Positions 1,519 to 57,574 of a stretch of DNA of 64,000 nucleotides are shown one piece after another. The notes below the pieces were generated by a model. The model was given only the letters and a program-made list of their open reading frames with translations, searched no databases and was not told the DNA's origin. This DNA comes from an uncultured candidatus Porisulfidus sp. GTDB taxonomy: Bacteria > Pseudomonadota > Gammaproteobacteria > Poriferisulfidales > Poriferisulfidaceae. Where the stretch lies: assembly GCA_965204575.1 (NCBI GenBank), contig OZ241993.1:64001-128000 (forward strand). Reading direction: 5' to 3'. Each line of letters begins with the position of its first letter. The first letter of the stretch is position 1. A program made the translations under genes and the position numbers.

Positions 1519-1529
1519 GGTTTTGTTCT

Positions 1530-1558
1530 GGGAATTACTAACATAACTTGACAGACTC
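1530..1558 (+). repeat. Left terminal inverted repeat GGGAATTACTAACATAACTTGACAGACTC
   Basis: Reverse complement of 2813-2841 with one mismatch. Confidence 0.95.
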
Positions 1559-2788
1559 GCGTCTGCCATATTCTGCAATTATTTGACGCTTCCCAGGCCG
1601 ACTGTGGCGGGAGACCCCGCCGGTGTCGCCACCTCCACGTCCAGCCGCCCCATTCCCGAAGGCCAAAATGTTCAATGCGGCGTTCACATCCGCATCGTCC
1701 GCATGCCCGCAAGCGGTGCACTTGAAGTCTGTTCCATTTCTGTTTCTCTCATCGACGTGCCCGCATGAATGGCAGGTCTGGCTGGTGTACGCCGGAGGCA
1801 CATGGCGCACCTCCATCTTGTAGTCCAGGCAGAGCTCCAGCGTGCCCCATGCGCTGGCCAGTATCTTCCGGTTCAGAGCCGCCTTCGCCTTCACGTTCCT
1901 GCCGGGTTTCTGTTTCGTGCCCCTGGCCGATTTCGTCATGCCCTTGATGTTCAGCTTCTCGACATAGGCCACGTCGTATTCTGACGCAATTCCCTTGCTG
2001 ACGTGGTGCGCCCAGTTCAACCGGGCGAAGCGTTCCGCATGGAATGCCCTCTGCAATCGAACTTTGGTGATCTTCCTGCGATTGCTTCCCTTCGCCTGCC
2101 GCGCCATCTTGCGCTGGTAGCGCCTGCGCTTGGCCTCTTTCCACGCTAAGTCAGGCCCCGGGTGCTTCGTGCCATCCGACAATACCGCCCACCCGTCCGC
2201 GTTCACGTTGCGGTCGATGCCCACTTCCTTGATCGTGTGAGGAAGACTGGCTTCCGTCTGGACTTCATAGGTCAGGTAGGCGTACCAGTTGCCACATTCG
2301 TACTTGATCTGGCCGGACTTGAACTCGCCGTCCAAGTAAGGGTTGTTGCCGACTATCTTCATCCAGCCGACCTTCTGCACATACAGGCTTTCTCCTGCTA
2401 CCTTGGAACAATAGCGGTCTAATGGAAACGAAGGCTCGGCCGTCCACTTGCCGTGGAACTGGGGAAGTTTCCGGTTCAATTTTCCTCCTGTCTTGCAGTC
2501 CTTGAAATATTCACGGTAAGCCGTCTCGATGGGTTGCAGGGAACTCTTCACCACATACGCCGAATAATCCTGCAACCACTTGTAACTGTGCCTTCTCAAA
2601 ACGGTGAATACCTTGCCCAACGAGAAATAAGTCCATTCCGGCTTGATTCCGAATTCGTATTCGTCCCTGAGCTTCCCGACCATGTGGTTCCAGACGAAGC
2701 GGCAGGCCCCGGCGGTGCCGTGCAGTTGCCGGTTCTTTCTTGCAGAACCCGGATGCAGGCGGTAGCGGACGGTGCGATGGACTTTCAT
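1538..2788 (-). CDS. tnpB: TnpB RNA-guided endonuclease (IS200/IS605-type), RuvC catalytic residues intact
   Basis: N-terminal YRLHP...GACRFVWN; RuvC GIDRN, VEKLNIKGM, DADVNAALNI; zinc ribbon CHSC/CTAC. Stop codon lies inside the left TIR. Confidence 0.95.
   Translation of the reverse strand: MKVHRTVRYRLHPGSARKNRQLHGTAGACRFVWNHMVGKLRDEYEFGIKPEWTYFSLGKVFTVLRRHSYKWLQDYSAYVVKSSLQPIETAYREYFKDCKTGGKLNRKLPQFHGKWTAEPSFPLDRYCSKVAGESLYVQKVGWMKIVGNNPYLDGEFKSGQIKYECGNWYAYLTYEVQTEASLPHTIKEVGIDRNVNADGWAVLSDGTKHPGPDLAWKEAKRRRYQRKMARQAKGSNRRKITKVRLQRAFHAERFARLNWAHHVSKGIASEYDVAYVEKLNIKGMTKSARGTKQKPGRNVKAKAALNRKILASAWGTLELCLDYKMEVRHVPPAYTSQTCHSCGHVDERNRNGTDFKCTACGHADDADVNAALNILAFGNGAAGRGGGDTGGVSRHSRPGKRQIIAEYGRRESVKLC
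1552..1700 (-). ncRNA. Putative omega-RNA overlapping the tnpB 3' end, scaffold ending at GCGTCAA (TCAA 1586-1583), with internal guide
   Basis: GGACGTGGAGG...GAAGCGTCAA architecture shared with the second tnpB; internal hairpin GGCGGG-GTCT-CCCGCC. Boundaries approximate. Confidence 0.6.
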
Positions 2789-2794
2789 GGGAAG

Positions 2795-2823
2795 ATTCTG
2801 ATGCCGGGTTTAGAGTCTGTCAA
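2795..2823 (-). promoter_or_regulatory. Putative sigma70 promoter for tnpB with -35 inside the TIR (likely leaderless mRNA)
   Basis: TTGACA (2823-2818), 17-nt spacer, CAGAAT (2800-2795), then 6 nt to the ATG; no Shine-Dalgarno. Confidence 0.6.
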
Positions 2824-2841
2824 GTTATGTTAGTAATCCCC
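2813..2841 (-). repeat. Right terminal inverted repeat (minus strand GGGGATTACTAACATAACTTGACAGACTC)
   Basis: Inverted copy of 1530-1558. Confidence 0.95.
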
Positions 2842-2856
2842 TTTATTCTCTCCCGG

Positions 2857-3338: not shown

Positions 3339-3413
3339 GGGCGATTAGCTCAGGGGGAGAGCGCTGCCTTCACACGGCAGAGGTCGCTGGTTCAATCCCA
3401 GCATCGCCCACCA
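3339..3413 (+). tRNA. tRNA-Val (CAC)
   Basis: Cloverleaf GGGCGAT...ATCGCCC-A-CCA; anticodon arm CTGCC-TTCACAC-GGCAG; T-loop GGTTCAATCC. Confidence 0.96.
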
Positions 3414-3481: not shown

Positions 3482-3557
3482 GCCCCCATCGGTTAAGCGG
3501 ATAAACCACGGGATTCCTAATCCCGGACTGGTGGTTCGAATCCACCTGGGGGCGCCA
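3482..3557 (+). tRNA. tRNA-Arg (CCT)
   Basis: GCCCCCA...TGGGGGC-G-CCA; anticodon arm CGGGA-TTCCTAA-TCCCG; GGTTCGAATCC. Confidence 0.95.
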
Positions 3558-40996: not shown

Positions 40997-41875
40997 GTGA
41001 CTCTGGCTACAGAACTTGCCCCATTGCGACAACGGATCATCGATCGGTTGGAGGAGGTCCTGCCGGGACCTGAAGTCGCGCCCGAGCATCTGCATGCAGC
41101 CATGCGGCATGGGGCGCTGGTCCCGGGCAAGTGCGTGCGGGGATGCCTTGTTTATGCTTCCGGACGGGCTTTAGGAATAGAAGTCGAGCGTCTCGACCGT
41201 TTTGCCTGTGCCCTGGAACTGGTTCATGCCTACTCTTTGGTGCACGACGACCTGCCGTGCATGGACGACGACGATATCCGGCGGGGGCGCCCCTCCTGCC
41301 ACGCAGCGTATGGTGAAGCAACGGCCCTGCTGGCGGGCAACGCCCTGCTGCTGTGTGCCATTGCCGAAGTGTCAGGCGACAGGGAATCGTCAGGAGAACA
41401 GCGCAGTGCGAGTATCGACCGGTTGTGCCAGGCGGCGGGTTCGTTCGGCATGATGGGAGGCCAGCAGCTGGATATCGAGTTGGAAGACGCTGAAGAGTGC
41501 CAAATCGACTTGCTTAATGAAGTGTATCGGCTCAAGACCGGGTGCCTGTTCCATGCCTCGGTCATGCTGCCGACGGAACTGGTGCAGGCCAGCCCAGGGC
41601 AAAGAGACGCGCTGGACACGTATGCGAGAAAAATTGGCCTGGCCTTTCAAGTGCGCGACGATCTCGAGGATATGGAGCAGGATGCCCAGCTTGCCGGCGA
41701 CGGGACGCGCCCGACTTATCCGGTCCTTCTCGGCGTCGAGGCAAGCCGCGAGAAGCTCTCCGGTCTCGGTGCGGAGGCGCTGGCGGCACTCGACATGTTC
41801 GGAGACCGCGCCGACTTGCTGCGTTCGCTTGGGCGATGGCTGACCTCAGGCTCTGCGGATGAACAGTTGGATTAA
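40997..41875 (+). CDS. ispA: Short-chain polyprenyl (farnesyl) diphosphate synthase
   Basis: HAYSLVHDDLPCMDDDDIRRG FARM with Tyr at -5, GQQLD, KTG, FQVRDDLED SARM. Confidence 0.88.
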   Translation: MTLATELAPLRQRIIDRLEEVLPGPEVAPEHLHAAMRHGALVPGKCVRGCLVYASGRALGIEVERLDRFACALELVHAYSLVHDDLPCMDDDDIRRGRPSCHAAYGEATALLAGNALLLCAIAEVSGDRESSGEQRSASIDRLCQAAGSFGMMGGQQLDIELEDAEECQIDLLNEVYRLKTGCLFHASVMLPTELVQASPGQRDALDTYARKIGLAFQVRDDLEDMEQDAQLAGDGTRPTYPVLLGVEASREKLSGLGAEALAALDMFGDRADLLRSLGRWLTSGSADEQLD

Positions 41876-41923
41876 GATGAGGTTTCACGGATTTGTTTGG
41901 AATCCGTGCTAGAGTAAATCATC

Positions 41924-43330
41924 ATGCACCGAGCCTCCCGCTACCGTCTGTATCCGAACCAGACGCATGAGCGGCAGTTCACTCGGCTGTGCGGGGCCGG
42001 CCGATTCGTCTACAACGAATTGCTGGCCAGCCAAATCCAAGAGTACAAGCGTTTCGAGGCCGGCGAGAGAGAAAGGCCGGGCACCTCCGAGTTTGACTTC
42101 GGAAGGCGGTATGCACGCCTGAAAGCACAGGAAGGTCACGAGTGGCTGCGGGAGCTGTCAGCCGTGGTCGTGCGCGGCACGGGGGCTTTCCCGCTGGGGT
42201 CGGCGTTCGCGCATTTCTCCCGTCGGATCCGGGAGAGCAAGTGCGGCAAGCAGGCCGGATTCCCCCGCTTCAAGGTCAAGGGCAAGAGCCGGGAGTCGTT
42301 TACGATCCCGGAGGACGTGAAGATCCGGAGCAAGCGGCTTTGGGTACCGAAGGTGGGCTGGATCCGGATGAACCGCAAGGCGCAATCGCGCACGCAGGGA
42401 GCCGACCCTTGGGACAGCGGCGAAGCCAAGACCGCGGTGGTGTACCGGGAGCTGGACAAATGGTACGTGTCGGTGCTGTGGGAGGTGCCAGACCCGGACT
42501 GGCGTTGGCACGGCGGGGTCTGCGGGATCGACCGCAACTCGGAGAACATCGCAGGGGCCTGGAGCGGCGGGCGGAGGCTGATCGAGATTCCGTATGAGCG
42601 AATCGGGAAGTACGAGGCGCGGGCCCGACACTACCAGTGGCGGGCGAGCCACCGGGAGCGGACCGAACTGAAGGATTCTGACGGAGAACCGGTGCGCACG
42701 AAGTCGGGCAAGAAGATCAAGGTGGCCTCGAACCGACGCCAGCGCTTGCAGTTGCGTGCGGCGAAGGCGAAGCGCAAGGCGGCGGAGATCCGCAAGGACT
42801 TCAGCCACCAGGCCTCGGCCGACCTGGCTCGGAACTTCCAGCACCTCGTGCTGGAGGACCTGGACGTGCAGGCGATGCGGCGCTCGGTGCGGGGGACGAA
42901 GGAAAAGCCAGGGCGGCGCGTGAAGGCGAAGACGGCGCTGAACCGGAAGATGGTGCAGTTCTCTTGCATGGGAATGGTGGACCGCTTTCTCCAGTACAAG
43001 GCGGCAGATCTCATCCGGGTGCCGGCGCGGAACACCAGCCAGGCCTGCGCGGAGTGCGGGCACACCGAACAAGGCAACCGGAAGGAGCAGGCGCACTTCA
43101 AGTGCCTGGCCTGCGGGCACACGGACAATGCGGACATCAATGCCGCACGAAACATCCTGGACCTGGGATTGAACAGGCTCCTGGCCGGAGGCGCTCCGGT
43201 GACGGGACGGGGAGGGGACAACGAAGCGGGGGCATTCTTCTATGAGTGCCTAGTGGACACCGCCGATGATCCGTCAACGATGCAGTGGAACTACCGGGGC
43301 TCGCCCCCCGACTTCCACACAGAATCGTGA
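41924..43330 (+). CDS. tnpB: TnpB RNA-guided endonuclease, RuvC catalytic residues intact
   Basis: YRLYPN...GAGRFVYN; GIDRN, LEDLDVQAM, NADINAARNI; CAEC/CLAC zinc ribbon; stop inside right-end repeat. Confidence 0.95.
   Translation: MHRASRYRLYPNQTHERQFTRLCGAGRFVYNELLASQIQEYKRFEAGERERPGTSEFDFGRRYARLKAQEGHEWLRELSAVVVRGTGAFPLGSAFAHFSRRIRESKCGKQAGFPRFKVKGKSRESFTIPEDVKIRSKRLWVPKVGWIRMNRKAQSRTQGADPWDSGEAKTAVVYRELDKWYVSVLWEVPDPDWRWHGGVCGIDRNSENIAGAWSGGRRLIEIPYERIGKYEARARHYQWRASHRERTELKDSDGEPVRTKSGKKIKVASNRRQRLQLRAAKAKRKAAEIRKDFSHQASADLARNFQHLVLEDLDVQAMRRSVRGTKEKPGRRVKAKTALNRKMVQFSCMGMVDRFLQYKAADLIRVPARNTSQACAECGHTEQGNRKEQAHFKCLACGHTDNADINAARNILDLGLNRLLAGGAPVTGRGGDNEAGAFFYECLVDTADDPSTMQWNYRGSPPDFHTES
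43150..43308 (+). ncRNA. Putative omega-RNA, scaffold ending at CCGTCAA (TCAA 43274-43277), with internal guide
   Basis: GGACGGGGAGG (43205-43215)...GATCCGTCAA mirrors the first tnpB; hairpins CCGGAG-GCG-CTCCGG and GGCATTC...GAGTGCC. Boundaries approximate. Confidence 0.6.
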
Positions 43331-43390
43331 AGCGCCGTTAAGATGCCGTAAACCGGACGACGGTACACAACGAGCGGGGTTCTGGTTCAC

Positions 43391-57498: not shown

Positions 57499-57574
<76 letters not shown>

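Follow-up and report, generated by a model that had tools for sequence, protein, structure and literature searches.

TnpB nucleases are generally tied to the IS200/IS605 and IS607 families, and the Discussion of PMC10711439 asks why. IS200/IS605 elements have neither terminal repeats nor target duplications (PMC13565253). The prokaryotic TnpBs that are associated with DDE transposases (branches DDE-1 to DDE-6) have inverted terminal repeats, their 3′ end lies at most 250 bp from the transposon end, and solo TnpBs with ends like those of transposase-bearing elements suggest mobilization in trans (PMC10691335; PMC13565253). The 2026 review among these sources describes DDE partners as rare and names only ISL2, IS630 and IS1031 (PMC13565253). 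Fanzors are found on transposons with repeats and duplications, where the repeat is folded into the scaffold of the guide RNA (right-end element RNA, reRNA) and the RNA extends beyond the element (PMC10711439). Here we describe two small tnpB elements, element 2 on the plus strand and element 1 on the minus strand, in a stretch of 64,000 nt from an uncultured 'Ca. Porisulfidus' bacterium (contig OZ241993.1, positions 64,001 to 128,000; hereafter the window). A first-pass annotation had read positions 43195-43337 of element 2 as an omega RNA with a counterpart in element 1, in which the scaffold ended at the motif TCAA and was followed by an internal guide. We found that the marked positions belong to a TnpB guide-RNA scaffold, of which they form the 3′ portion, and that this scaffold is carried on a small ISL3-type element. 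As a whole, we consider it probable that element 2 is a non-autonomous ISL3 element carrying tnpB, that its scaffold runs to the end of the repeat, and that the guide is taken from the flank.

Comparison with the described systems revealed similarities to each of them. Element 2 resembles the IS200/IS605 TnpB systems of the ISDra2 type in its TnpB-family protein and in a scaffold that overlaps the 3′ end of the gene, and it would also resemble them in a pseudoknot-like pairing of a 5′ loop with the transposon end and in a guide expected from the flank. Unlike those systems, the elements described here have terminal inverted repeats (TIRs) and 8-bp duplications without TnpA, show an extra repeat hairpin between one of the scaffold helices (helix A) and the predicted pseudoknot strand, and do not possess a 4-5-nt insertion motif that could serve as a target-adjacent motif (TAM). 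Inverted terminal repeats and apparent mobilization in trans are shared with the DDE-associated TnpBs, for which the accounts in PMC10691335 and PMC13565253 describe no RNA architecture of the present kind. As with Fanzor1 and Fanzor2*, a TnpB-family nuclease is carried on a cut-and-paste type element. The duplication of the Fanzors is short, has a fixed sequence and is counted as scaffold or TAM, whereas the duplication here is 8 bp long and variable, which would leave guide as its only possible role, and the TAM-like G is found outside the duplication; the pseudoknot, reported lost in Fanzor1, appears to be retained. Like ISL3 insertion sequences and their derivatives, the elements have repeats of ~24 bp that begin with GG as well as AT-rich duplications of 8 bp, and the genome holds an autonomous copy whose repeats are near-identical. 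Unlike ISL3 derivatives, the elements have a TnpB/omega RNA cargo, and the right end appears to have evolved RNA pairing partners inside that cargo.

TnpB on DDE elements is known, and as far as we have seen, the ISL3 partner, the refitted RNA, the predicted use of the duplication as guide and the short TAM-like signal are apparently undescribed. Neither PMC10691335 nor PMC13565253 names ISL3 in its main text, although the supplements of the former may list it, and our literature search revealed no paper linking TnpB and ISL3. The elements would add ISL3 as a TnpB partner. They indicate, from sequence alone, a way in which the end of a foreign transposon could be accommodated in a guide RNA, and such co-evolution of RNA and transposase is testable in E. 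coli. If the one-sided G described below were the whole TAM, the elements would provide nucleases of ~415-470 aa with unusually free target choice.

Borders and ISL3-type ends of the elements

The 1.82-Mb genome that contains the window holds six copies of the element 2 family (81-100% identity) and seven copies of the element 1 family (73-100% identity). When these copies were aligned with their flanks included, the homology of both families passed TCAA and reached the TIRs; beyond the TIRs the flanks were unrelated, and 8-bp direct repeats bracketed most copies. The element 2 site was found unoccupied, as ...CAGTTGG ATTAAGAT GCCGTAAACC..., in all five same-genus genomes with the anchor (nine loci examined). 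Element 1 was absent in seven of seven relatives, two of which show the empty site ...GGGAG AGAACAAA ACCATG.... Additionally, contigs assembled from three DNA runs bridged both junctions of the occupied element 2 site and had loose ends at which the copies diverge, at 43336; no joint across element 2 was found in these contigs. The two ORF-to-repeat units (ORF, open reading frame) are element 2 and element 1, and because empty sites and repeats fix their borders at 41879-43336 and 1530-2841, the segment that follows TCAA is internal to the element and is not host flank, an objection that the first-pass annotation had itself raised. The span that it had marked starts inside the RNA, the first stem-loop of which begins at 43184, and ends one base past the element.

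The TIRs of element 2 are ~24 bp long and its target duplication is 8 bp. To seek partner elements, its repeat was used to scan the genome, which revealed three mutually identical insertion sequences of 1348 bp, each with 8-bp duplications. These encode an ISL3-family transposase (PF01610, 216 bits, with an ISL3 zinc ribbon and a helix-turn-helix domain), and one of the repeats is identical to the right repeat of element 2 at 22 of 24 positions. The near-identical repeats and the 8-bp duplications argue that element 2 is a non-autonomous ISL3-type element, which by its sequence carries tnpB as cargo instead of a transposase and is presumably mobilized in trans by the transposase of the 1348-bp insertion sequence. 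The ISL3 membership of element 1 is indicated only by its 8-bp duplication and a similar inner motif. We also observed that the stop codons of both the TnpB ORFs and the ORF of the ISL3 transposase fall inside the right repeat (element 2, window 43328-43330; insertion sequence copy G000:C1:36848-38195 and two others) and that the encoded tails are similar, namely ...PPDFHTES-stop, ...ANFHT-stop and ...PPFHTIP-stop.

Both proteins belong to the TnpB family, with scores of 185 bits (element 2) and 206.5 bits against NCBIfam NF040570 (cut-off 100). PF07282 and PF12323 were above their cut-offs in both, while PF01385 scored 46.6 in element 1 and 30.2 in element 2 (cut-off 30.5). The two proteins are mutually 36% identical, and the structures 8bf8 and 8h1j in the PDB were matched with E = 4e-19. 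In protein alignment A1, D203 (in GIDRN), E311 and D404 were invariant, as were the cysteines C375, C378, C394 and C397 (CxxC...CxxC); we take these residues to be the RuvC D-E-D and zinc finger motifs. The element 2 nuclease looks intact, and with its catalytic residues kept it is not a nuclease-dead TnpB of the TldR type. Nor was a fixed host-promoter guide as in TldR systems found, as the internal segment has no host match with up to two mismatches beyond a decayed right-end fragment. The repeats and 8-bp duplications, confirmed by the empty sites, set the elements apart from IS200/IS605, including the IS1341 group. IS607 elements are without repeats or duplications, use a serine recombinase and end in GG. 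The elements here do not belong to that family, since repeats and 8-bp duplications are present, and the IS607_TnpB model scored 89.7 bits against a cut-off of 350.

Guide-RNA scaffold at the right end

The observations of the first-pass annotation were confirmed, and its interpretation was partly supported. The two motifs that it had noted are present (GGACGGGGAGG at 43205-43215, plus strand; GGACGTGGAGG at 1642-1632, minus strand). Nothing else in the window matches GGACGKGGAGG, for which 0.14 matches were expected and two were reached in 1 of 100 shuffles. CCGTCAA at 43271-43277 and GCGTCAA at 1589-1583 (minus strand) were found as it had claimed, and the change from T:G to G:C between the elements is compensatory as it had described. 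The covariation among homologs goes well beyond this single change. In alignment A2 (MAFFT; 34 non-identical 3′ ends, with three near-duplicates of 37 left out; three helices, 16 pairs), 91.2% of the cells were paired versus 80.4% in shuffles, and the covariation score was 0.338 versus 0.157, with none of 500 shuffles reaching either observed value; when the helix partners were slid, pairing dropped to 30-60%. The scaffold overlaps the gene's 3′ end, covaries and shows compensatory changes in its inner stems, which identifies it as a TnpB omega RNA or reRNA in both elements.

Helix A occurs in homologs as GACGG/CCGTC, GACGT/GCGTC, CACGG/CCGTG and CACAG/CTGTG. At its outer pair (columns 25/95), 15 rows have G:C, 14 have C:G and 5 have another combination, and at a further pair G:C, G:U and A:U all occur; five unpaired rows of this helix are E1 sequences misaligned by MAFFT, in which GACGT/GCGTC can be read directly. 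Opposite the 5′ strand CACGG or CACAG, relatives read CCGTGAA or CTGTGAA. TCAA thus alternates with TGAA by covariation and is the end of a helix A strand, not a cleavage motif. The helix of stem-loop 1 was 97.6% paired, and two-sided changes occurred at three of its five pairs. The scaffold region is not covered by any Rfam family, and only three tRNAs reach the gathering score in the window.

After TCAA, element 2 reads CGATGCAGTGGAACTACC (43278-43295), GGGG-CTCG-CCCC (43296-43307) and the right TIR up to 43336. Element 1 fits the layout that had been proposed for both elements (scaffold, TCAA, 15-18 nt, hairpin, TIR) only loosely: 14 nt follow TCAA, and in the hairpin TGGCAGAC/GTCTGTCA the 3′ arm already lies inside the 29-bp terminal repeat. 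A hairpin of at least 5 bp, for which the inner portion of the right repeat supplies the 3′ arm, was present in 36 of 37 ends (z below -1.5 in 31 of the 37); the sole failure was E1_f, where the anchor fell inside the hairpin. The linker between helix A and this hairpin has a median of 4 nt and a range of 0-10 nt in the 37 ends. The stems differ between lineages yet pair, as in GGGAT/ATCCC, GGCATC/GATGCC and ATCTGAA/TTCAGAT, and a subfamily at 60% protein identity has a different sequence after CCGTCAA (AACCTTTGTCGTGGGATC...) that pairs with its own repeat. In the folding model, the whole candidate internal guide of element 2 would be paired with the repeat. By these folds the terminal repeat is part of the scaffold, as in Fanzor-type reRNA; the duplication as a part of scaffold or TAM is not found here, as the duplications are variable and AT-rich.

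Despite differing termini, every lineage showed complementarity between the loop hexamer of stem-loop 1 and the final 6 nt of the element. The combinations of loop and terminus were GGCGCT:AGCGCC (element 2 type), GGGAAT:ATTCCC (element 1 type), GGGATT with AATCCC or ATTCCC (Rhodothermales), and a GGGACT or GGGACA loop with AGTCCC (others). In A2 this helix was 90.2% paired, and three of its six pairs were changed on both sides. Among 31 loci scored for loop against terminus, 10 paired at 6/6, 19 at 5/6, one at 4/6 and one, with an ambiguous terminus, at 3/6. Position -16 was the only window with at least 5/6 complementarity to the terminus in 8/9 lineage representatives, and the next best positions reached 3/9. 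In elements whose two repeats are not the same at bases 4-6, the loop mostly follows the right repeat (L040, L078, L093, E1_win and the E2 rows). Furthermore, the centroid fold of element 2 pairs GCGCU with AGCGC, and in the minimum-energy fold of element 1 (z = -2.6) GGGAAU is paired with AUUCCC. Judged by sequence evidence, the omega RNA or reRNA pseudoknot appears to be present. The pairing resembles the pseudoknot published for TnpB and Fanzor2 RNAs, in which the 5 nt flanking the guide pair with the apical loop of stem-loop 1 (PMC10711439), and by this analogy the guide would start at 43337.

Proposed guide and competing explanations

In the reading that we favour, the scaffold would extend from stem-loop 1 (43184) past TCAA to the last base of the right repeat (43336). 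Its order would be stem-loop 1 (loop GGCGCU), helix A (GACGG/CCGUC) enclosing inner stem-loops, the repeat hairpin, 3 nt, and AGCGCC, which would form a pseudoknot with the stem-loop 1 loop. The RNA would be transcribed or processed through the repeat and would take its guide from the DNA beyond the end, from 43337 onwards, as the 8-bp duplication and ~8-12 nt of flank, so that the guide of each copy would match its own unoccupied site. TnpB would cut the empty site, preceded by a short TAM ending in G, recombination with the occupied copy would restore the element, and the ISL3 transposase would move it in trans. Cutting of the empty site and restoration by recombination have been shown for IS200/IS605 TnpB. 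The predicted guide template of element 2 matches the empty site of the relatives except at its first base.

A G directly 5′ of the left duplication was found in 32 of 41 deduplicated sites (binomial p = 8e-13), with GG as the last two positions in 18 of those; at the mirror position after the right duplication, C was found in 9 of 41. All eight further E2-type sites from same-genus genomes have the G, which brings the count to 14/15 for E2-type sites and 40/49 overall. Among ISL3 copies that lack tnpB, by comparison, the G was seen in 1/8 and 0/3. The target duplications themselves were variable and AT-rich, without a fixed motif. The one-sided G looks like a short TAM, and a G preference on one side that is tied to the direction of tnpB would fit a TAM beside a target starting with the duplication. 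Such a bias could arise through the retention of insertions that TnpB can defend.

Several points weigh against this reading. The fold of element 2 alone was no better than that of shuffles (z = -0.27). Most of the two-sided pair changes in the pseudoknot trace to few events (~4-5 independent), those at columns 11/188 and 12/187 come from the E2 lineage, and in Rhodothermales pair 5 is a U:U mismatch in the majority of copies (column 13/186, 16 of 34 cells unpaired). L063 pairs at only 4/6, and the loops of L052 and L064 follow the left repeat instead. The contrast between own-lineage and cross-lineage pairing is modest, at 5.56 versus 4.69 of 6 pairs, because many termini share GGGA/TCCC. The loop position was spotted by eye before it was tested, the aligned sequences are related, and the loop hexamer falls in coding sequence. 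An autonomous ISL3 partner with repeats of the E1/Rhodothermales type (GGGAATTAT...) was not found in a pattern scan of the own genome or in 30 ISL3 loci from five Rhodothermales genomes. Finally, a TAM of 1-2 nt would be unusually short, and the control copies lacking tnpB are few (11) and are mostly of other repeat types.

The alternative that survives best, although we regard it as unlikely, is that the elements have no working guide RNA: the sequence after TCAA would be kept as the C-terminal tail of TnpB and as a transposase-binding repeat, the complementarity would act at the DNA level or be due to chance, and the elements would be decaying passengers. The ORF does read through to a stop inside the repeat, several substitutions are synonymous in frame (AAC/AAT, CCC/CCT, GAC/GAT), and the indels are multiples of 3. 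Signs of decay are present in the broken copies E1_e and E1_f and in stops inside other matches, and the E2 copies, with a mutual likeness of 81-89%, cannot be recent. However, coding constraint leaves unexplained why stems pair through different sequences, why it is mostly the right repeat, and not the left one, that the loop follows, and why a G stands on one side of the duplication; moreover, the catalytic and zinc-finger residues of element 2 are intact.

Several DDE families, including ISL3, form circular intermediates. A scaffold that runs to the element end could take its guide from such an intermediate, at a circle junction of right repeat, spacer and left repeat, or TnpB could have another role, such as regulation, instead of homing. 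Restorative homing has been argued to fit DDE transposons less well (PMC13565253). The G bias nonetheless adjoins the chromosomal duplication and is confined to one side, which fits a chromosomal target, and no circle-junction sequence was found in the contigs, though contigs drop rare forms; we therefore hold this explanation to be quite improbable.

The proposal of the first-pass annotation, that the scaffold ends at TCAA and that 43278-43295 is a fixed internal guide whose 3′ end is set by the hairpin, so that all copies share one target, did not hold up and is in our judgement very improbable. The segment is inside the element and nearly invariant in the six own-genome copies, as this proposal expects, and three scaffold copies without tnpB lose BLAST similarity to element 2 right after TCAA; in those copies, however, a hairpin of their own and a 3′ strand complementary to the loop are retained ahead of the divergence. 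A fixed guide would be a conserved sequence, whereas here the pairing with the repeat is kept and the sequence is not, as in the subfamily at 60% identity. The short linker, the alternation of TCAA and TGAA as a helix strand, and the pairing of the terminal 6 nt with the 5′ loop also argue against it. A search for targets returned nothing usable. In the own genome, with up to five mismatches allowed, only the element copies and a fragment at genome position 1563882 were close to the internal 18-20-mer (at most two mismatches), and the other matches, with 4-5 mismatches, look like chance. The fragment was considered as a guide target and rejected, since decay of a right end together with a small deletion accounts for it better. 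Viral contigs contained two exact 18-mer matches in unrelated contexts, about the chance level by a rough estimate, and plasmids and phages contained no match to the 67-nt end. For annotation, the conserved ...CGTCAA should not be taken as the border between scaffold and guide in this lineage. A nested insertion, in which an IS605-like unit sits inside an ISL3 transposase gene and the 'guide' is the 3′ end of that gene, was dropped because no convincing similarity extends beyond the shared ...TTCCACAC...TGA end, the ~45 nt before the ATG leave no room for a left end, and two families of 36% identity share the layout.

Returning to the favoured reading of a scaffold that runs to the repeat end with a guide from the flank, we give somewhat less than even weight to a broader scenario. 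A bacterial TnpB lineage would have moved from peel-and-paste elements to ISL3 (DDE) elements, and its guide RNA would have been rebuilt, with the repeat in a hairpin and the last 6 bases, recognized by the transposase, as the pseudoknot strand. The 8-bp duplication would form the start of the guide, and the TAM would be reduced to 1-2 bases (G, often GG or TG) outside it. This would be a prokaryotic parallel to the evolution of Fanzors and a natural TnpB with nearly TAM-free targets, spread through sponge symbionts of different phyla.

Distribution, scaffolds without tnpB and other features

The layout of tnpB, repeats and an 8-bp AT-rich duplication recurs in relatives from public genomes, mostly sponge-associated metagenome-assembled genomes (MAGs) of Chromatiales/'Ca. 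Porisulfidus', Caldilineaceae and Rhodothermales. Duplications with at least 7/8 matching bases, many of them 8/8, were found in 35 of 82 loci resolved by the repeat finder, and further cases were seen beyond these; the finder resolved 32-35 of the 82 loci, and the remaining 47 were not counted as negatives. A TnpB lineage common to three phyla of mostly sponge-associated bacteria suggests horizontal spread. The features of the two elements, together with the tRNA genes of the window, are collected in Table 1.

Table 1. Positions of the elements, their proposed RNA parts and other features in the window
Feature	Position	Strand	Basis
Element 2, 1458-bp non-autonomous ISL3-type element with tnpB and omega RNA	41879..43336	+	own-genome copies, empty sites, contig ends
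Element 2 tnpB ORF, 468 aa; stop TGA inside right repeat	41924..43330	+	Pfam, NCBIfam, conserved residues
GG directly before left duplication, at TAM-like position	41869-41870	+	one-sided G bias
Left 8-bp target-site duplication copy, ATTAAGAT	41871..41878	+	empty sites in 5 same-genus genomes
Left TIR of element 2, GAGGTTTCACGGATTTGTTTGGAA	41879..41902	+	matches to right repeat and ISL3 insertion sequence repeats
Stem-loop 1 (stem 43184-43188 with 43196-43200)	43184..43200	+	covariation of helix 1
Loop hexamer GGCGCT, 5′ strand of proposed pseudoknot	43190-43195	+	loop position common to 8/9 lineage representatives
Helix A, 5′ strand GACGG	43206..43210	+	covariation
Helix A, 3′ strand CCGTC plus AA	43271..43277	+	covaries with 43206-43210
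Hairpin joining post-TCAA segment to right repeat	43278..43327	+	RNA folds; 5′ arm co-changes with repeat in subfamily
Hairpin pairs: CGAT/ATCG; GTGGAA/TTCCAC; GGGG(C)/(G)CCCC tip	43278-81/43324-27; 43285-90/43313-18; tip	+	
Right TIR of element 2, TTCCACACAGAATCGTGAAGCGCC	43313..43336	+	22/24 positions identical to one ISL3 insertion sequence repeat
Last 6 nt AGCGCC, 3′ strand of proposed pseudoknot	43331..43336	+	complementary to 43190-43195
Right duplication copy of element 2, GTTAAGAT	43337-43344	+	
Predicted guide template, GTTAAGAT plus 12 nt of flank	43337..43356	+	inferred from pseudoknot position
Element 1, 1312 bp	1530..2841	-	own-genome copies, repeats, duplication, empty site in relatives
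Element 1 tnpB ORF	2788-1538	-	
Element 1 terminal repeat arms, 29 bp	1530-1558 and 2813-2841	-	
Element 1 duplication copies, AGAATAAA and AGAACAAA	2849-2842 and 1529-1522	-	
Element 1 loop GGGAAT; terminal ATTCCC	1657-1652; 1535-1530	-	
Element 1 helix A, GACGT with GCGTC	1641-1637 with 1589-1585	-	
tRNA genes	3339-3410, 3482-3554, 57499-57571		Rfam gathering score

The own genome also contains scaffolds without tnpB. Two paralogous modules of ~260 nt were found, one in L008 (G000:C1:1027345-1030425, module ~1028760-1028990) and one at G000:C1 ~775900-776130. Each starts with a promoter-like TTGACA...TACCAT, followed by an omega scaffold, a hairpin of its own and an ATTTCC that is complementary to the loop; beyond these come divergent sequence and a terminator. 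A direct repeat of 16-17 nt lies over the -35 region and inside the hairpin; it differs between the loci, while the two copies within a locus are alike. These modules may act in trans as stand-alone guide RNAs. In L007 (G000:C1:1478182-1481284, ~1479682-1479830), another scaffold lacking tnpB retains the GGCGCT loop and an ...AAGCGCC end, but its hairpin is a different one (ATACCG/CGGTAT).

Element 1 with its duplications (window 1522-2849, minus strand) lies precisely between the stop of soxX and the start of soxY and parts soxY from the GGGAG that precedes it in relatives. The expression of soxY may now need read-through out of element 1.

The Rhodothermales MAGs G001, G002, G004 and G005 contain 30-100 matches to ISL3 transposase profiles and up to 33 TnpB copies. 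In one Rhodothermales genome record (L073-L099), dozens of copies have a constant left flank, ...ATATATTA, and differing right flanks; this unit may be nested in another repeat or reach further left. In the own genome, a 40-bp unit at G000:C1:624981-625020 consists of two ISL3-type repeats head to head, a minimal remnant like a miniature inverted-repeat transposable element. Lastly, a 441-aa ORF at G000:C1 ~793189-794500, which by eye resembles a membrane fatty-acid desaturase, has a weak C-terminal match to an ISL3 DDE profile (34.9 bits).

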